From: an uncultured Gammaproteobacteria bacterium
GTDB taxonomy: Bacteria > Patescibacteriota > Patescibacteriia > Magasanikbacterales > GWA2-37-8
Length of the DNA: 64,000 nt
NCBI GenBank assembly: GCA_964355175.1
Contig: CAYHBZ010000001.1
Location: forward strand, 445 to 64,444
Direction: 5' to 3'
Numbering within the stretch: the stretch's first letter is position 1; every line of letters starts with the position of its first letter. This document shows positions 29,386-58,200 of this stretch, piece after piece. The notes beneath the pieces are model-generated. The model was given only the letters and a program-made list of their open reading frames with translations, was not told the DNA's origin and did not search any database. Position numbers and translations under genes: made by a program.

Positions 29386-29475
29386 ACTGCTACTACTGTA
29401 AATACAAAATTTATATTCACAGTGGTTGGAGCAGTCTTGAAACTCTCGCGGTTGTACCCACCTCGATGGCTCGAG

Positions 29476-29847
29476 TCACGCAATGCCGTGCATGGCCTTG
29501 AACACCTGGACGACCGTGCGCTGGATTTCAGCATCCTGGATCTGGCCACGGCTCGTGTAGATGGCGCTTGTGCCAAAGCCGTGATTGTAGAACGCCAGGA
29601 AGTCGCGAGCCTCACACTCCCGAATCAGATCTGCCTTGTGGCAATGCATCTTGGTCGAGAGGCGGACCAGGGTGGGCTGGCCGTTTTTCTCCGGCAGGGA
29701 GCTGACGTTGCCGTCCCAACGCCCTTCTTCCAGTTGGTCCAGTCTCAAGCCCAGGAACTTGAAAAGGGGCAATTCATACCCCCAGACACCATCCAGACTG
29801 AGGTGGTTCGGAAAGAGGAGAACTCGCACTTTCGTGGACGTGGACAT
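29476..29847 (-). CDS. hypothetical protein encoded in a high-GC island
   Basis: 123-aa ATG-initiated ORF with protein-like composition inside a ~58% GC segment; other frames there read as high-GC frame artefacts. Confidence 0.4.
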   Translation of the reverse strand: MSTSTKVRVLLFPNHLSLDGVWGYELPLFKFLGLRLDQLEEGRWDGNVSSLPEKNGQPTLVRLSTKMHCHKADLIRECEARDFLAFYNHGFGTSAIYTSRGQIQDAEIQRTVVQVFKAMHGIA

Positions 29848-29972
29848 GGGATTCCTCGCGGAGCAGGTGTTTGCCTGCGGTAGATTGCTTTATTTATACT
29901 ATAATCACGCAAATAGTCAATATCAGCTCTCACCCTTGTTTTTTCCAATCAATAGTGTTAAATTAGCCTAGT

Positions 29973-49233: not shown

Positions 49234-49305
49234 TCCGAGGTAGCGCAGCGGTAGCGCAGTTGGCTGTTAACCAATTGGTCGTGGGTTCGAATCCCACCCT
49301 CGGAG
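49234..49305 (+). tRNA. tRNA-Asn (anticodon GUU)
   Basis: Manual fold; GGCTGTTAACC anticodon arm typical of Asn, T-loop TTCGAAT. Confidence 0.85.
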
Positions 49306-50769
49306 CATGTTTGCAAAATCACCCTTTTGGGTGGTTTTTGCTATCACCTCGTAAGGCATTTTAAAGCTAACGTCAGCGATATTTTGATTTTCAAAAGTAA
49401 GGTTCCAAAGTAAAATTTCTAACAACTCTCTTTTACCATCATTTTGAGAATGCAAAAATTTTATTTTGGCTTGATTAGCAGTTAAAAAGACATTTTTGAT
49501 TCGTTCCAAAGTTGATAAGGGGTTATTCGGTGATTCTTTTTGAATATCTTTTTGCTGTTTCTCGAGCGTTACCCGTTCATTGTTTAAAGCCTGTATTTTG
49601 GTCGTATAAACGTCTTCGGGTATTAAGTTGGATAAGTGGCCATCTAAGACCTTTGCTTGCTTCTGACGAACGTCGTTGAGCTGTTTTTGTATACTTTCAA
49701 CTGACAGCTGAACGTATTCAAAGCTTTTGCCTGTTTTTTCTTTATTGGCTAGATATGCCATCTCAATTAAATCAGAATCTACTGCTAGTTTATTTAAAAT
49801 TTCAGCGATTTTATTTTCAGCTTCTCGTTCTTTTAAATATTTTTTGTGTTCGTCACAAATTTTCTTGCCATTAGTACAATAATAATAGACATTTCCTTTT
49901 TTGGTACTGCAAGTTAATAAACAGCCGCAATTTTTACAGTTCATAAAACCACGAAAAGGGAAGTTGTGTTTTTCTTTTTTTGCATGCATTCTGCCAGTCA
50001 AAGCAAATTTAGTTTTTTCAAAAAGTTCTTGTGAAATAATTGGTTGATGGTTGCCAGGATATAATTGACCGTGCCATTGCATAAGTCCAGCATAAAAAGT
50101 TTCAGATAATACACGATGGATAACGCTGTGTCCAACTTTACGTCCAGCCTGAGTTCTTAATCCTTGTTTATAAAGTTTGTATTCGATATCTTTAACGCTA
50201 TATGCACCGGTAGAATATAATTTAAACATTTCTTCTACAAAATGAGCACGCTCTGGATCTGGATAAACAGTTTTGTCACCTTTGTTATTTAAATAACCAA
50301 AGGGCGCATAAGAAGGCCATCCACCTTGTCTTAACTTCTCTTGATTTCCACGCTTTACATTTACACTTAAATCACGAACAAACTGATTCGCCATACCAAA
50401 TTCAAACGTCATCAAAAGTACATTGTCGGTTGGAAAATAAGTTCTATCGTGGGCTCGAATTTCTTGCACTATACTTTTTTGAAGAATCCAATTTATGGCA
50501 CCACCATCGACAGGGTTTCTTGCTAAGCGATCCAGTTTCCACACATAAAGAACACAAGGATTATTTAATTTAATATAATCCATCATTTCTTGAAACACTG
50601 GTCGCCCTGGTTCTTTCGCAGACATGCTCTCACAAAAAATCCTATCTAAGATAACACCCTCACGAGCCGCCTTTGTTTGTATTTCGTTTACTTGAGCGTC
50701 AATAGACAAGGATTGTTTCTCTTCTGATTCGGAAGATTTACGACAGTAAGCGAGGTATTTCATATTCAA
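49267..50769 (-). CDS. large serine recombinase (integrase)
   Basis: N-terminal resolvase domain (YCRKSSESEEKQSLSIDAQ, catalytic Ser), recombinase domain, Zn-ribbon CKNCGC...YYYC, coiled-coil C-terminus. Confidence 0.85.
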   Translation of the reverse strand: MNMKYLAYCRKSSESEEKQSLSIDAQVNEIQTKAAREGVILDRIFCESMSAKEPGRPVFQEMMDYIKLNNPCVLYVWKLDRLARNPVDGGAINWILQKSIVQEIRAHDRTYFPTDNVLLMTFEFGMANQFVRDLSVNVKRGNQEKLRQGGWPSYAPFGYLNNKGDKTVYPDPERAHFVEEMFKLYSTGAYSVKDIEYKLYKQGLRTQAGRKVGHSVIHRVLSETFYAGLMQWHGQLYPGNHQPIISQELFEKTKFALTGRMHAKKEKHNFPFRGFMNCKNCGCLLTCSTKKGNVYYYCTNGKKICDEHKKYLKEREAENKIAEILNKLAVDSDLIEMAYLANKEKTGKSFEYVQLSVESIQKQLNDVRQKQAKVLDGHLSNLIPEDVYTTKIQALNNERVTLEKQQKDIQKESPNNPLSTLERIKNVFLTANQAKIKFLHSQNDGKRELLEILLWNLTFENQNIADVSFKMPYEVIAKTTQKGDFANMLRGWDSNPRPIG

Positions 50770-50772
50770 AAA

Positions 50773-51723
50773 TTAAAATTCAGGTAATTCAATCGGTCTT
50801 TTATTATTATCATAAGCCTCTTGATCCAGTTTTGTCGGAACGGTTTCGAGAATATCATAACCAGTAATATCAAGAAAGGCAAGTAGCTGTTTTAAAATAT
50901 CAGGATTATTAATTAGATTATAACGCTTATAATCAAGTAAAGGTATATACCCTTCGGTCTTTTTATCAGAGTGGTATTCAAGTGTTTCAGGTGGAACGAA
51001 ATCCAACAACTCATTGATTTGATCATCAAAATATACGAAGCGAGGTTTTTTAAGTTGTTTGCTAACAAAATAACATTTTTTACCGTGTAAGCGAGAATCA
51101 TCAAAATTTTTTGACATATACTTTGACATATACCTAATTATCTTTTTAAGTTCATCCACATTTTTGGTACTTTTAACATTTATAAATCCTTGTCCCCATA
51201 CCTCAACAATTTTCTTTTTAATATCACTGATAAATGGAAGGTTGAAAAACATAATATGATAATGAATAGCCCCACGCTTTTGAAACTCGATAACCACAAT
51301 GTATCTCAGAAAACTCTTTTTATTTTTGGTAATAAAGAAATTAAGACGTTGAATATATTTAGTAAATTCATAATTAGCAAATTTGATGTCAGTAATATTA
51401 TCTCCGAAAGTAAGGGTAATAAACAGCGGGGGATCAATGTGTCCATATGAATCAGGCCAAGCATAGGCATTGCAGTTGATATGATCGTGAAATTGACGTT
51501 TGGCACGCCATAGACGTTGTTGTTTGGCTAATTCTTTATCTACATCTTCTACCCCTGTCTTTTCAACTCTCTCTTTCTTTTCCTTTTCTGGTCTACCACC
51601 AACAAAAAAGTCTTTGCCAAAAAGACGAACCTCAATAACTGCTCCGCAGATTTTTAACTGTTTATCAGTTTTGTAATATAATTTTTCACCATTAAATTTT
51701 GATTTAGCCCAATTACTTAGCAT
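50773..51723 (-). CDS. rolling-circle replication initiator (HUH endonuclease, phiX174 gpA-like superfamily I Rep)
   Basis: Motif I FITLTF, motif II HYHIMFF (HUH), motif III YMSKYMSK (two catalytic Tyr, YxxKY). Confidence 0.75.
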   Translation of the reverse strand: MLSNWAKSKFNGEKLYYKTDKQLKICGAVIEVRLFGKDFFVGGRPEKEKKERVEKTGVEDVDKELAKQQRLWRAKRQFHDHINCNAYAWPDSYGHIDPPLFITLTFGDNITDIKFANYEFTKYIQRLNFFITKNKKSFLRYIVVIEFQKRGAIHYHIMFFNLPFISDIKKKIVEVWGQGFINVKSTKNVDELKKIIRYMSKYMSKNFDDSRLHGKKCYFVSKQLKKPRFVYFDDQINELLDFVPPETLEYHSDKKTEGYIPLLDYKRYNLINNPDILKQLLAFLDITGYDILETVPTKLDQEAYDNNKRPIELPEF

Positions 51724-53555: not shown

Positions 53556-53825
53556 ATATATAATAATTGGGTAACAAAAAAGGCTACCCGTAACTCTGGC
53601 GGCTCCTTGCGAAGCCCAACAGCCTTTCGACTGCTGACTGGAAAAACAATACCAGAGACGGCGTAGCCATCTCTATGTTTTTCCAGATTTTTGACCATAC
53701 CCGACGGAATTCGACGGGGTTAGGTCTGTTGAATTGTAAAGATAGTATATATTATCTACTTATTTTTATCAACACTTGACACTAATTTTAGTTACTGTAT
53801 AATACTCCTATTCCTTGGTGGAGTA

Positions 53826-55472
53826 TTGGTATCAAAATTGATATCGATCACAGAAACCAAATACAATCTTACTGGTCGATTTGTATTTGATCTCGAACAC
53901 CTTCCAAGGGTGTTTATTTATTTTTTAGTATCCTTTATGGATATTGAAATAACAAAAAATTATATGGATCAATTTACTTCAAATCACCCAAATGCAGCAA
54001 GATTACTCACTTCATTGCGAAACACAGGTTATGATAGTCGAACAGCGATAGAAGACATAATCGACAATTCTATCGATGCTGGTTCGCGTATTATTAATAT
54101 AAATATTAACACTGTTGATAAAGAATCTCGAGTTGTCATTTCAGATGATGGGTCTGGAATGTCACTTCAGATTTTAGACGAAGCTTTAAAATTGGGATCG
54201 GCTACCGAAAAAGACGAAATGTCTGATTTGGGAAAATATGGCATGGGCCTTTGTACAGCTTCTATTTCGATGGCAAAGAGACTTAAAGTAATAACAACAA
54301 CAAACGGACTTGAGTATCTTACTAGTATTCAGGATCTTGATGACGTGGTTAAGGCTAACGATTTTATAAAGGAATTACGTGGCGCAAATACCGATGAAAT
54401 TTCATTGTTCAAAGAATTCGTTAAAGGCGACCATGGAACAGTTGTAATTCTTACAAAGATCGATCGATTGTCTAATGAAAATCTTAGTATATTTTCAGCA
54501 AGTTTAGCCAAAGAGGTCGGTCGTATTTTTCGAAAATTTATTGAATCCGGAATTCAATTTACCATGAATGGAAAAAAGATTGAGTCAGTTGATCCTCTTA
54601 TGTTAGATCAAAAAGGTACGCAAGTATATTCAGACGAAGAATACGAAGTGCCTGTTTCAAACGGTAAAGAAAAAATTCGAGTAAAAGTTGTTATATTGCC
54701 TGATGTAAATGAAGAACTAGAGAAAGAACTTAAGATGAATATCCAGTCGCAAGGTTTCTATTTATTAAGAAATAATCGAGAAATTGCAAACGGCGAGGCA
54801 CTTGATGTATTTAGAAAGCATAACGATTACAATCGTTTGCGAATTGAGCTTTCTTTTACTTCAAATATGGATAATGAAATGGGTGTTCGGTTTACTAAAG
54901 ATGGGGTAAGTCCAAATCAAGCTATAAGCGATTATCTCAAAAGTGAGATTGGAGGACAGGTAGCATCAATCCGAAAAATATTAAAACCAAAGTTTGCTGA
55001 CAAATCAAAAGAAATTGACCATGAGGAGTCTGCAGCTGTTATTGCAAGAAAATCAAAATTGCTTATTACACCAGAAGCCATTATTGAAAAAAGAGAACCA
55101 AAAATGAATGATGGGGCCAAAAAAGAAAAAAACGAGAATGATGAAAAAAGAGAGCGGGTGCCTAACAAAACACGACTTTCTTCAAGAGGGCTTGGTGCAC
55201 GTTTTGAAACTTCATCAATGGGCAGAGAAGGTGCGTTGTACGATTGTTACCAAGAAGGAAAAGTAGTTGTTATACGTTGGAACGTGGATCATCCTTTTTA
55301 TGAAAAGATTATTCTATTAAATAAAGACCGAAAGGATATAACAGCAGGAATAGATTTTCTCATTTATGCCTTAGCTTCAGCGGAGCTTAAAACTACTAAT
55401 GATGATAATGCTGAATTAATAAGTACAATTAAATCAATAATGTCTGCAAACCTAAGAGCCTTGTTGTCTTAA
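53826..55472 (+). CDS. MORC-like GHKL (Bergerat-fold) ATPase
   Basis: N box IEDIIDNSIDAGS, G1 DDGSGMS, G2 GKYGMGL, MORC-like GFYLLRNNREI S5 region; the true start may be the internal ATG at 53937. Confidence 0.7.
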   Translation: MVSKLISITETKYNLTGRFVFDLEHLPRVFIYFLVSFMDIEITKNYMDQFTSNHPNAARLLTSLRNTGYDSRTAIEDIIDNSIDAGSRIINININTVDKESRVVISDDGSGMSLQILDEALKLGSATEKDEMSDLGKYGMGLCTASISMAKRLKVITTTNGLEYLTSIQDLDDVVKANDFIKELRGANTDEISLFKEFVKGDHGTVVILTKIDRLSNENLSIFSASLAKEVGRIFRKFIESGIQFTMNGKKIESVDPLMLDQKGTQVYSDEEYEVPVSNGKEKIRVKVVILPDVNEELEKELKMNIQSQGFYLLRNNREIANGEALDVFRKHNDYNRLRIELSFTSNMDNEMGVRFTKDGVSPNQAISDYLKSEIGGQVASIRKILKPKFADKSKEIDHEESAAVIARKSKLLITPEAIIEKREPKMNDGAKKEKNENDEKRERVPNKTRLSSRGLGARFETSSMGREGALYDCYQEGKVVVIRWNVDHPFYEKIILLNKDRKDITAGIDFLIYALASAELKTTNDDNAELISTIKSIMSANLRALLS

Positions 55473-55519
55473 TCGGCTGGCCCCCTTAATTGGGGGTCTT
55501 TTTTTAATATATATACAAT

Positions 55520-56404
55520 ATGACTGATCAAAATATAATTCAACAAGATTCGCTGGAGCCACATTTGTCGGTCGTTGTTAGTGGTAATTTGGTGGAGCCG
55601 ACACACGACGCCTTTATAGAACAATTAACTGGTGGAAAAAGCAAAAAATACGTCAGATTCGTAATTGCCGCGTTAAGTAGTATTCCTTGGGTGGGTGGTG
55701 TAATCGGAGCAGTAGCAGGTTATAGTGCTGAAAAGGATCAGGAAAAAATCAATATACTACAAAAATTATGGCTTGAGGAACATAGAGAGAAAATAAAAGA
55801 ATTGACGAATACCTTTGCTGAAATTTTTGGCAGATTAGATAGTTTTGGAGACGAAGTGCAACAACGGATCGAGTCACCGGAATACTTGTTATTAGTCAAG
55901 AAAAATTTTCGTATTTGGGACCAAGCGGACACAAACGACAAAAGAGAAATGTTAAAAAAACTTATAACAAATGCTGGCGCAATATCGTTATGCCCGGATG
56001 ATTTAATCAGGCTTTTTATCAGTTGGATTGATTTATATCACGAAGCTCATTTCTCGATAATCAAAGAAATTAATAAAAATCCAGCAATAACTCGAGGGTC
56101 AATATGGGAAGAAATTCATGGTGAAATACCACGTGAAGATTCCGCAGAAGCTGATTTGTATCGTTTATTAATTAGCGATCTTAGTATCGGACGTGTAATT
56201 CGTCAAGCAAGAGACACGGATATGCACGGCAGATTTTTAAAGAAAAGTCGTACCGGCCAATCTCGTAGTCGCTCGTCTGGCATAATGGAATCTGCATTTG
56301 AAGACACCAAACCATATGTGCTAACTGAACTTGGTACGCAATTCGTACATTACGTTATGAAAGACGTGGTGCCAGAGATTGGGACAGGTAACATCTCACC
56401 ATAA
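55520..56404 (+). CDS. hypothetical membrane-associated protein, partner of the GHKL ATPase
   Basis: 294 aa, one TM (FVIAALSSIPWVGGVIGAVAGY); same strand and short gap to the GHKL gene. Confidence 0.5.
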   Translation: MTDQNIIQQDSLEPHLSVVVSGNLVEPTHDAFIEQLTGGKSKKYVRFVIAALSSIPWVGGVIGAVAGYSAEKDQEKINILQKLWLEEHREKIKELTNTFAEIFGRLDSFGDEVQQRIESPEYLLLVKKNFRIWDQADTNDKREMLKKLITNAGAISLCPDDLIRLFISWIDLYHEAHFSIIKEINKNPAITRGSIWEEIHGEIPREDSAEADLYRLLISDLSIGRVIRQARDTDMHGRFLKKSRTGQSRSRSSGIMESAFEDTKPYVLTELGTQFVHYVMKDVVPEIGTGNISP

Positions 56405-56512
56405 TAAAATCTTTCTAAAGTCGTCTAAGACATCCAGAAATAGAAAAAAACGACTTACAATCAATGGTTGATAGCTTTGGTAGGTGAGTTGGTTAATATA
56501 AATATGTCTATA

Positions 56513-56558
56513 GTTTAGCCAAATACCGTCCAATCTCATCCCACATGTAGAGCCAACG
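56513..56558. repeat. ~45-bp direct repeat, copy A (copy B at 57288-57335), flanking a high-GC sub-insert
   Basis: TTAGCCAAATACCGTCCAATCTCATCCCACATGTAGAGCCAA versus TTAGCCAACCACATTCCAATTTCATCCCACAACCAGAGCAAT, about 80% identical. Confidence 0.55.
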
Positions 56559-56767
56559 TGCACGAACAGAAGCGAAAGCTTCTGTTTTTTGTTCAACCAT
56601 ACGGGTTTTTATCAATTATCTCTTACAATCTTTTTTATGCATATATCATTGACAAAACCAACCAAATCATGGTAAGTTTATCTATTCCAAAAACCACACT
56701 TCGTGGATATGGGATCTCCGCCGTGAGAGGGTCGCGGTCAACCAAAGTTCTGAACAAGGAGCATGTC

Positions 56768-57253
56768 ATGCTGGCACGTTTGCAAAAGTACATCCAGGCT
56801 CAAGGGTTCCGTGTCCACGAAATGGCCGAATTGGCCCCTGGCGTGATCGTCGTCCACGACAACTACGGCGAACACGGCGGAGAGTTTGATGCCTACATCG
56901 ACGCTGAAGCCATCGGGCCGACGCAACCGGAAATCTGGGGAGAGGAAGGCCTCGTAACTCCTGGTCTCAAGGGCACTGGCCTCGGCGTCTTGCAGGGCGT
57001 TGCCTTCGGGTCCCCCCCCCAAGAGCGTTTTGCAGTTCTTCCAGGCCGCGCCCCAGCTCCTGACCGGCAAGCAGGCGCCGATCTCCTGGTACGAAGCGCC
57101 CCAGCCGCTCGAAGTCCCGCAGGACATCCGGGCGTGAGCCACATCCGGGTCTTACCAACCCAGGCAGAGCTAGGGTTCTCGGATCCTCGCTCTCGCTGTC
57201 TGAATATTAAATTAGTATTTGGACAACGCGAGCGATTCGAGATTTATATATAA
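56768..57253 (+). pseudogene. high-GC ORF with its own AAGGAG RBS; the C-terminal half reads as a frameshifted product after a C9 homopolymer
   Basis: ~62% GC; SD AAGGAG 7 nt before the ATG; the N-terminal ~80 aa are protein-like, after C9 (57012-57020) it becomes Pro/Ala/Arg-rich; a convergent minus-frame ORF is also protein-like. Confidence 0.35.
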
Positions 57254-57290
57254 AATCCAACCATTTTTATGGTTGGATTTTTATTTTGTA
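57252..57290 (+). terminator. terminator hairpin AAATCCAACCA-loop-TGGTTGGATTT with a T-run
   Basis: Perfect 11-bp stem followed by TTTTATTTT. Confidence 0.7.
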
Positions 57291-57489
57291 TTAGCCAACC
57301 ACATTCCAATTTCATCCCACAACCAGAGCAATTCAAAAATAGGCGGTGCATTAAGTTTAGGTTACTGCCTTTGCAAGTTAGTTGGTCTCGCTAAGTTTAT
57401 TATTTTTTGGTATACTGAGTAAGTTGATAAGAAATAATATTTTGTACAGGTGGCTTAATTTATTATATTCAAAGTAGATACTTCATAAT

Positions 57490-58200
57490 ATGATATACTC
57501 TTTTAAAAAATTGACGGACCTGCAAAGGAAAATATGTCTTAAAACCATTAGCCCAAAAGCGATATATGCTATAGTCGGCGATGCAATAATAAACCGTAAA
57601 AGCATCTCTATAGTTAGAATGGGTGATGGAGAGTGTAAAATATTAAGTGCAGACAAAGCTAAGCCATTTACGGATTTTAATCATACGCACAAAGATTGGA
57701 ATAAAAGGTTGGGCATCGAAGGCATTTCCATTGATGTTTTACAAAAAAATATTCTAGAAGCCGGAAACAAATGTACTTACTTCGCACCCTCGATTTCTGG
57801 TGTTTTTATACCTGAATATCATTTATATAATTTTTTTAAACCACGCCCGTATTATTTTGATAATTTTTATGTAAACGACTGGACTACGGGGATGATCAAA
57901 ATGCTTTTAGAGGCCAGTGACGGTATTTTTATTATACATAGAGATTATAAAAAAATTATTAGTAATTTTAAAAAAAATATAATTTGCGACAAAAAAATAA
58001 AGTTTGACGGCTTTCCTAAAAACAATTGGGATGATAATGATCAAGCGATTGATATGGCAGTTAAATCCGGTATGCAGTTAATTCTTTTTAGTGGTGGCCC
58101 TAGCGGAAAAGTCATTGGACCAGAAATTGCAAAGGCTAAGAATAAAATAGTGTTGGATGTTGGAAACACATTGATGTCTTGGAGTATAAAAGCAAGCTGA
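57490..58200 (+). CDS. DUF1792 (GT-D type glycosyltransferase-like) protein
   Basis: SIVRMGDGECKIL matches the DUF1792 hallmark. Confidence 0.45.
   Translation: MIYSFKKLTDLQRKICLKTISPKAIYAIVGDAIINRKSISIVRMGDGECKILSADKAKPFTDFNHTHKDWNKRLGIEGISIDVLQKNILEAGNKCTYFAPSISGVFIPEYHLYNFFKPRPYYFDNFYVNDWTTGMIKMLLEASDGIFIIHRDYKKIISNFKKNIICDKKIKFDGFPKNNWDDNDQAIDMAVKSGMQLILFSGGPSGKVIGPEIAKAKNKIVLDVGNTLMSWSIKAS

Follow-up and report, generated by a model that had tools for sequence, protein, structure and literature searches.

A GC-rich promoter-to-terminator cassette, frameshifted at a poly-C tract, in a Magasanikbacteria chromosome

How does a GC-rich gene come to stand, broken at a single run of cytosines, in an otherwise AT-rich bacterial chromosome? 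The question is raised by positions 56,513 to 57,335 of a 64-kb window (the whole stretch of DNA that was analysed: 64,000 nucleotides, positions 445 to 64,444 of the forward strand of contig CAYHBZ010000001.1, assembly GCA_964355175.1), where an earlier note, made from the letters alone, had described a high-GC insert between direct repeats. The window is chromosomal DNA encoding DnaK, PyrG, DnaG and the CCA-adding enzyme, and its PyrG is 93% identical to that of Magasanikbacteria metagenome-assembled genomes (MAGs) from lake metagenomes; the lineage is Candidatus Magasanikbacteria (Patescibacteria, or candidate phyla radiation, CPR), from deep lakes. The best explanation of the locus as a whole, and a probable one, is that a self-contained cassette resembling a phage moron was acquired horizontally and is frameshifted in this genome. 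Morons are recognized by their own promoter and terminator and by a deviant GC content (PMC3594210).

The GC content, put at ~62% in the earlier note, was confirmed by a GC check in which the locus gave 61.7% against 39.4% and formed the 500-bp maximum of the window. Positions 56700-57200 run at 61.7-66% and 56706-57200 at 62%, compared with a whole-window average of 39.4%; among 500-bp segments (mean 39.4%, standard deviation 4.3%) the peak of 61.8% falls on the cassette, more than five standard deviations above the mean. The GC-rich sequence sets in at about 56706, inside the 5' untranslated region (5'UTR), and the composition deviates just as clearly from that of the flanking genes (62% versus 39%).

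The unit and its boundaries are marked by recurrence. Contigs from three other sequencing runs (L001, L002 and L091, encoding proteins P0001, P0002 and P0096) match the window at 87-91% DNA identity over 56633-57288 only, and the flanks of the cassette compared with those of the other copies are at 30-37% identity, the random level. Pairwise identity among the four alleles is 84-91%. The left edge of the shared unit lies about 15 nt 5' of a putative -35 element, the right edge is the T-run of a terminator (T2), and a T-run stands a few bases before the left junction in three of the four contexts. The suggestion that this is foreign DNA acquired by horizontal gene transfer (HGT) gains support from these four unrelated contexts, from a GC content of 76% at third codon positions (GC3), and from homologue-bearing contigs of 54-63% GC (L085-L087). 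The alternative suggestion of a chimeric assembly was rejected, since the AT-rich/GC-rich junctions are reproduced in independent, naturally diverged assemblies from other samples. A cloning artefact, hinted at by GGATCT and GGATCC at the GC-rich borders, was likewise rejected given the existence of four naturally diverged alleles.

Two of the other contexts are small islands. At the start of L001 and L002 lies the 3' portion of a tRNA-Pro gene, whose end is repeated exactly, over 22 nt, 1.9-2.6 kb downstream, and the cassette is the last gene within the small island bounded by these att-type repeats. The tRNA-Pro(UGG) 3'-end repeats lie at 37-58 and 2676-2697 in L001 and at 38-94 and 1940-1996 in L002, with paired TGTGACC motifs near the ends; a TTGTGACC-N6-TGTGACCAAAA motif occurs near both ends of the island in each. 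The other cargo differs between the two (a sigma70_r4 protein versus a methyltransferase), and neither island encodes an integrase; both look like cis-mobilisable elements. Directly beyond the island in L001, after a terminator, stands a second high-GC (~60%) unit of promoter, ribosome-binding site, gene, hairpin and terminator, which encodes a PNP_UDP_1 phosphorylase (L001 2740-3760) and is absent from the same site in L002 (1990-2010). Presence and absence between adjacent genes is thus seen for the PNP_UDP_1 cassette; the 122-amino-acid (aa) unit of the window is known from four contexts, with no empty window site found. A more distant homologue (P0004, 40% identical) is also encoded in a GC island, with a predicted promoter and terminator of its own and AT-rich sequence on either side.

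Within its edges the cassette has the layout of a complete transcription unit, with promoter and terminator activity predicted from sequence features (Table). The putative promoter combines a perfect TTGACA with an extended -10 of the form TGnTAAGTT; a consensus scanner did not call it because the -10 hexamer matches at only 3 of 6 positions, and its sequence is conserved across the four alleles (ATCATTGACAAA...TGnTAAnTn). The AT-rich leader described earlier is present. The AAGGAG-ATG start also stood, with a spacing of 6 nt to the ATG at 56768 rather than the 7 first given. The 3' untranslated region (3'UTR) is the best-conserved segment of the cassette (95-96% identity between alleles), and all three substitutions in the stem of its long hairpin still pair via G-U in an RNAalifold fold; the hairpin has no match in IMG/VR. 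The unit closes with its own factor-independent terminator, T2, which in L001 and L002 pairs fully only as plus-strand RNA, again via G-U. The earlier note had placed one terminator between the repeats; that one, T1, was found, and T2 is a second. Within the 64-kb window the T1 type (AACAGA...TCTGTTTT) is found a single time, and it adjoins the cassette in L001, L002 and L091 as well; T1 may therefore have travelled with the cassette. T1 also resembles the terminator after tRNA-Pro in L001, at a score reached by 0 of 2000 shuffles.

Table. Coordinates of the cassette, its surroundings and the accessory island, as window positions
Feature	Position	Strand	Evidence or remark
Mobile unit, promoter-to-terminator cassette	56633-57288	+	blastn and MAFFT identity to L001, L002, L091
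Promoter-like site (putative)	56649-56678	+	-35 TTGACA 56649-56654, 18-nt spacer, extended -10 TGGTAAGTT 56670-56678
5'UTR, 89 nt	56679-56767	+	hairpins 56694-56706 and 56718-56737 (alignment fold); Shine-Dalgarno AAGGAG 56756-56761
Coding sequence, codons 1-84 (MLARL...GSPP)	56768-57019	+	full-length homologues P0001, P0002; dN/dS 0.10-0.23; pLDDT 95
C9 homopolymer	57012-57020	+	one base above in-frame C8; frameshift
Coding sequence, codons 85-122 and TGA (KSVLQFF...PQDIRA*)	57021-57137	+	+1 frame relative to upstream part; aligned to homologues' last residue
Open reading frame as in window, 161 aa	56768-57253	+	Pro/Ala/Arg-rich aberrant tail after residue 84
3'UTR long imperfect hairpin, ~30 base pairs	57178-57241	+	RNAalifold
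Intrinsic terminator T2 (predicted)	57252-57287	+	13-bp stem and T-run; cassette right end
Terminator T1 (predicted; AACAGAAGC-GAAA-GCTTCTGTT and T-run)	56565-56590	+	40 nt upstream of cassette
Antisense open frame, 63 aa	56967-57158	-	antisense of codons 67-122 and 21 nt of 3'UTR
Direct repeat copy 1	56515-56553	+	31/39 identity to copy 2; 80 nt upstream of unit, beyond T1
Direct repeat copy 2	57291-57329	+	starts 3 nt after cassette end
tRNA-Asn	49234-49306	+	left end of island
Large serine recombinase gene	49267-50769	-	3' end overlaps tRNA-Asn
Rolling-circle Rep (REP_ORF2-G2P)	50773-51723	-	beside recombinase, in island
LOOT RNA, full length	53601-53726	-	Rfam RF03000, 85 bits versus gathering score 46
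MzaB-like HATPase_c_3 protein, then 294-aa protein without family match	53826-56404	+	in island; 294-aa gene 55520-56404

As it stands in the window, the gene is read as an open reading frame (ORF) of 161 aa, which matches the public gene calls P0003 and P0094. The suspicion that its Pro/Ala/Arg-rich tail is read out of frame proved right: with one C removed (C8), the frame ends at a TGA (57135-57137) and gives a 122-aa protein that is intact elsewhere. The accompanying check, whether taking out one C would restore a longer ORF, came out otherwise, the result being shorter (122 versus 161 aa) and yet authentic. Searched against 5.8 billion proteins, the 122-aa query recovered P0001 (93%) and P0002 (83%), each 122 aa and matched over 100% of the length, along with the frameshifted 161-aa product P0003. 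An exhaustive profile search with a threshold of E <= 1e-3 brought in 39 clusters, and each aligns across the position of the tract. An AlphaFold2 model of the 122-aa form reaches a predicted local distance difference test score (pLDDT) of 95.2 and a predicted template modelling score of 0.89, with residues 85-122, those beyond the tract, at pLDDT 94-98. The ratio of nonsynonymous to synonymous substitution rates (dN/dS) is 0.17-0.28 among alleles, and the protein is evidently under purifying selection, as judged by these substitutions. The plus-strand C8 frame is the authentic gene, and the public gene calls at the locus, of 161, 194 and 131 aa, are artefacts of its frameshift.

The product is predicted to be a small alpha/beta protein of an undescribed family, without a recognisable relative. 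No member of the family matched Pfam, PHROGs, NCBIfam or PADLOC, and the family profile found no match among PDB sequences. Foldseek gave no match in PDB for the 122-aa model or for a 243-aa model fused to a zinc ribbon (pLDDT 87.5), and none in BFVD for the 122-aa model. Relatives were absent from pattern scans of GTDB species representatives, IMG/VR and JGI contigs, and from phage and plasmid records (50,697 phage records). Some family members carry an N-terminal CxxC...CxxC domain, and the nearly invariant residues are D31, D45, W57, L75, A94, L98 and P111. The islands that carry the gene as accessory cargo also hold defence-type genes, and the protein might plausibly act in conflict or in interaction with a host. 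This well-folding family of 39 unannotated clusters is open to characterisation.

The convergent minus-strand ORF, which had also been thought to look coding, exists, but it is simply the antisense of the C-terminal third of the gene. It stays open in all four alleles with no conserved start codon, and a comparison of sense and antisense dN/dS does not favour it, there being too few substitutions to discriminate. Open antisense frames are common in genes with a high GC3. The minus-strand ORF is judged not to be a gene.

The tract itself was described correctly as C9, and it is the sole G/C homopolymer of at least 7 in the 64-kb window, where the longest A/T run is 8. The intact alleles of L001 and L002 read GGT AGC CCC CCC AAG (C7) and that of L091 reads GGC ACC CCC CCC AAG (C8), whereas the window lineage has GGG TCC CCC CCC (+C) AAG; because its serine codon is TCC, the in-frame tract in this lineage is C8. 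The ninth C is also found in Logan contig L003 (100% identical to the window over 1617 bp) and in P0094, encoded on a 550-kb NCBI contig. L003 ends precisely at 57290, a hint that the assembly graph may branch at this point. A sister assembly (L090; ENA ERZ4201064, NODE_2, 953,736 bp, coverage 10.5) aligns with the window over 17,333 bp with 0 mismatches and 1 gap, an extra C in the tract. From the ATG at 56768 this C10 leads to a 98-residue product, and the public call P0095, taken from an upstream start, is 131 aa. Both lengths seen in this lineage are out of frame, and the length of the tract is unstable or uncertain. The earlier suggestion of a decaying or possibly phase-variable gene is thus upheld, with a tract one base too long here, C7 or C8 in intact alleles and C10 in the sister assembly. 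A gene recently inactivated by slippage and a contingency switch caught OFF both fit, and we infer that the slippage is biological rather than technical. A second C9 run was noticed in L091, at 1481-1489, directly after the cassette terminator.

The foremost rival to recent decay is that the poly-C is a true phase-variation switch, ON at C8 and C11 and OFF at C9 and C10, flipping at high frequency in a gene that is functional rather than decaying. This has a substantial but clearly minority share of the probability. A run of at least 7 C is retained in all four alleles despite synonymous divergence (dS 0.2-0.35), no other long G/C run occurs in 64 kb, and tract length is the sole difference in 17.3 kb between two assemblies. 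Downstream of the tract no relaxation of selection is seen (dN/dS 0.44-0.51 against the intact alleles, over few sites). In Campylobacter, G/C tracts of at least 7 are reportedly an accepted phase-variation signature (PMC4965091), and the tract would qualify by that signature. Against a switch, the ON length is not observed in this lineage, the Pro-Pro codons account for most of the tract without selection for mutability, and a literature search gave no paper linking Patescibacteria with phase variation or homopolymer terms among the matches listed. The likeness to the contingency loci of Campylobacter, Neisseria, Haemophilus and Bordetella lies in an intragenic poly-C of 7-10 that sets the frame (C7, C8, C9 and C10 in different alleles) and in a length polymorphism between otherwise identical genomes, for which a technical cause is possible. 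The difference is one tract in 64 kb here versus many in contingency-locus organisms, and the assignment here is by sequence criteria alone. The tract may be taken as a candidate homopolymer switch.

The stretch from 49.2 kb to ~57.4 kb looks like an accessory island with the cassette as its last gene. The overlap at its left end, between the recombinase gene and tRNA-Asn, points to integration into or beside the tRNA gene; a displaced or second tRNA-Asn 3' end was not found in the window. The recombinase ORF reaches 40 nt into the 3' end of tRNA-Asn, and its last 13 codons (...GWDSNPRPIG) are tRNA sequence. The island also holds two unknown genes and a DUF559 protein, and the LOOT RNA sits between the DUF559 gene and the gene for the MzaB-like ATPase. 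Rep, the MzaB-like ATPase and the 294-aa protein may represent a defence module, either incomplete or of a new type, carried by an integrated replicon of the rolling-circle kind. On the 3' side of the cassette a GT-D-like gene (57490-58200) is followed by ordinary membrane-protein genes.

Less easily placed are the direct repeats that had been said to bound the insert. Their existence and their ~80% identity held up (31/39, or 79%), as the top repeat in the surrounding 11.5 kb, with an alignment score reached by 0 of 2000 shuffles and a degenerate pattern of which 0 are expected from 100 shuffles; the length of 45 bp did not, the real extent being ~39-41 nt. Nor do they delimit the mobile unit, since homology to the other copies spans only ~56633-57288, copy 1 lies 80 nt outside it, and the other three cassette copies (L001, L002 and L091) have no 39-nt repeats. 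The degenerate pattern found no repeat copy in the window beyond these two, none at the tRNA-Asn end of the island and none in IMG/VR. A scan of 241 million metagenome records from JGI gave a third (L088 925-955, minus strand; JACCDN010075856.1) in an unrelated intergenic region without a cassette, where it comes right behind a terminator and stands ~130 nt ahead of a membrane-protein gene. A hairpin follows each of the three copies within 11-18 nt. They may be a lineage-specific intergenic motif, serving as a regulatory site or recombination anchor, with one copy native and one imported, a reading that falls somewhat short of probable.

Could the repeats instead be the attL and attR scars of a site-specific insertion that delivered 56554-57290? 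They are real and in the same orientation, with copy 2 directly at the end of the cassette; a serine recombinase gene lies at a distance of 6 kb, and the islands of L001 and L002 are bounded by true att-type direct repeats. The idea is nonetheless improbable: the repeats match each other at just 79%, against 100% for the cassette between assemblies, the homologous units in other contexts have no such repeats and start 80 nt inside copy 1, none is found at the tRNA-Asn end of the island, they are not tRNA-like, and the third copy lies in an unrelated intergenic region with no cassette. A tRNA remnant was rejected separately, as alignment to the 3' ends of tRNA-Asn and tRNA-Pro is no better than that of shuffles. 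Translated on the minus strand, each of the three copies gives WDEIG-x-[Y/W/F]-LA and then a stop, in frames open for just 13-28 codons, and by reading no Shine-Dalgarno sequence is seen upstream of the sole ATG in these frames; that the repeats are the end of a minus-strand gene carries low weight. A gene call on the sister assembly (L090 9840-9932) corresponds to a 30-aa minus-strand ORF at window 56508-56600, over copy 1 and T1, and is probably spurious. The third copy follows a ~110-nt promoter-plus-terminator unit with no ORF or Rfam match, which may be a small RNA.

Another reading makes the frameshift a miscall, the true tract being in frame and C9 and C10 both errors of sequencing or assembly. 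Two assemblies of the same genome do differ solely at the tract, and by its contig name the C10 assembly has a coverage of only ~10x. Yet C9 appears in at least 3 gene-call records or assemblies (the window, L003 and P0094), SPAdes-type short-read assemblies seldom miscall a 9-mer, and neither length is in frame, so that an in-frame truth needs two different errors; we regard an artefact as distinctly unlikely. Fainter still is the chance that the frameshift is bypassed, with RNA polymerase slippage or +1 ribosomal slippage of tRNA-Pro restoring some 122-aa protein. Homopolymer runs of at least 9 promote slippage by RNA polymerase, CCC-C is a textbook site of +1 shifting by tRNA-Pro, and the downstream frame is still intact and conserved; but a stimulatory element was not found, intact alleles have no need of a bypass, and C10 would require another shift than C9. 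A structured non-coding RNA gene, brought to mind by the GC content, the hairpins at both ends and the putative promoter and terminator (rRNA, RNase P RNA and tmRNA stand out by GC in AT-rich genomes), has almost no likelihood left and was rejected, for the coding signal is strong (homologues, dN/dS, AlphaFold2) and the region is empty of Rfam families both at the gathering threshold (whole window) and at an E-value <0.5 (56300-57600).

Among known systems, the horizontally acquired cassette comes closest to the phage morons of the HK97/HK022 type (the Hendrix-Juhala concept, PMC3594210). It shares with them the layout of an independent unit, here with a putative promoter and a terminator around a single accessory gene, a GC content unlike that of its neighbours, varied contexts in related genomes and a position at the edge of an integrated element. 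It differs in that virion genes are absent from the host element, whose genes include those for a serine recombinase and a rolling-circle Rep, the hosts are CPR bacteria, a long conserved hairpin occupies the 3'UTR, and the question of expression from a repressed prophage does not arise. No recognisable prophage is present, and the protein has no match in the 50,697 phage records or IMG/VR; the cassette is therefore moron-like island cargo and not a phage moron.

Its relation to tRNA-linked islands and integrative mobilisable elements is that of a cargo, carried in L001 and L002 by the segment flanked by tRNA-Pro repeats and in the window by the island that abuts tRNA-Asn, with a recombinase gene at the junction. 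It departs from them in that the tRNA-Pro islands lack an integrase, the distal tRNA-derived repeat seen for tRNA-Pro in L001 and L002 is missing from the window island, and the cassette itself moves between different islands. Integron cassettes are likewise single-gene units in variable order in an array-like accessory region; here the unit has a putative promoter of its own, attC, IntI and attI are all lacking, and the junctions fall at terminator T-runs. At the 3' end the only palindromes are the long hairpin, which lacks core sites, and the terminator of 30 nt, and the large serine recombinase is the only recombinase among the ORFs scanned from tRNA-Asn to the cassette. A reading of the terminator as an integron attC was rejected, its RYYYAAC/GTTRRRY matches being a by-product of a short perfect palindrome. 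The PeSL cassettes of T4-type phages (Arbiol et al. 2010) are reportedly genes bracketed by terminator stem-loops and promoters that are shuffled between genomes by insertion after a terminator; the present unit, by comparison, is chromosomal rather than in a lytic phage and is not flanked by repeated promoter/stem-loop homology blocks.

The gene probably comes from a GC-rich lineage, possibly GC-rich Patescibacteria. Two of the contigs that carry homologues (L085 and L086) are 60-63% GC throughout and a third (L087) is 54% GC. Beside the L085 homologue lies a gene for PurA (adenylosuccinate synthetase), whose best named match is a Patescibacteria MAG protein (67%), with Uhrbacteria of 57% GC also among the matches. 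This hint of a GC-rich CPR donor fits the report that Patescibacteria commonly show HGT and genomic islands, with most of the transfer coming from within the phylum (PMC12455944). Singleton changes among the four alleles in AT-rich hosts number 40 from G/C to A/T and 24 from A/T to G/C, and the GC content of the cassette thus appears to be drifting slowly down.

The proposed course of events is as follows. A transcription unit consisting of a sigma-70-type promoter, leader, Shine-Dalgarno sequence, 122-codon gene, stabilising 3' hairpin and terminator would have been acquired horizontally and placed at the far end of an accessory island beside tRNA-Asn in a Magasanikbacteria chromosome. The whole unit would circulate among related AT-rich lake bacteria within small tRNA-linked islands, its gene, brought from a GC-rich lineage, losing GC slowly with the protein under purifying selection. 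In the window lineage a synonymous change that put the Ser codon TCC before Pro-Pro may have lengthened an ancestral C7 to C8, after which slippage would have given C9 (C10 in the sister assembly). As the sequence stands, translation leaves the frame after residue 84, and the product of 161 aa (or 98 aa) would be non-functional. The kind of event is known, being ordinary HGT; what is new is this cassette, its host group and its protein family. The locus would offer a base-pair view of a streamlined CPR genome gaining and then losing an accessory gene.

Several points weigh against this account of a mobile cassette acquired and then broken. No cassette-free version of the window site was found, and insertion here is argued from the other contexts; the 88% homologue of the GT-D neighbour (L089) shares the gene alone, and synteny yields no empty site. 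No dedicated recombinase, target-site duplication or terminal inverted repeats were found that would explain movement, and the 39-nt flanking repeats are not accounted for by the cassette model. The island holds no virion or phage structural genes, so that the likeness to morons is one of architecture only. The -10 hexamer is weak apart from its TG extension, only the OFF lengths 9 and 10 occur in the lineage, with a homopolymer sequencing or assembly error possible for one of them, and the donor lineage is drawn from one neighbouring gene.

A broader generalization can be entertained, though it is rather unlikely: CPR/Patescibacteria might swap ready-to-express single-gene 'chromosomal morons' between small integrase-less tRNA-linked islands, with insertion behind terminator T-runs that needs no dedicated recombinase, and one of these units would carry a poly-C switch on a protein of new fold. 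If true, this would be the first simple-sequence phase variation in ultra-small episymbionts, and the orphan 39-nt motif may then serve these cassettes as an anchor for recombination or as a regulatory site.

Two minor observations concern other GC-rich spots. Just upstream of the cassette that encodes the distant homologue P0004, at L084 60-235, a high-GC ORF (~25 aa, hydrophobic, MWTALVWYWGAGLVLLLVMRQRFFV) is accompanied by a promoter-like site and a terminator. In the window itself, a 153-aa ORF with no Pfam match coincides with the second-highest GC spot (~50%, 29422-29971), between the genes for DHBP synthase and DnaG.

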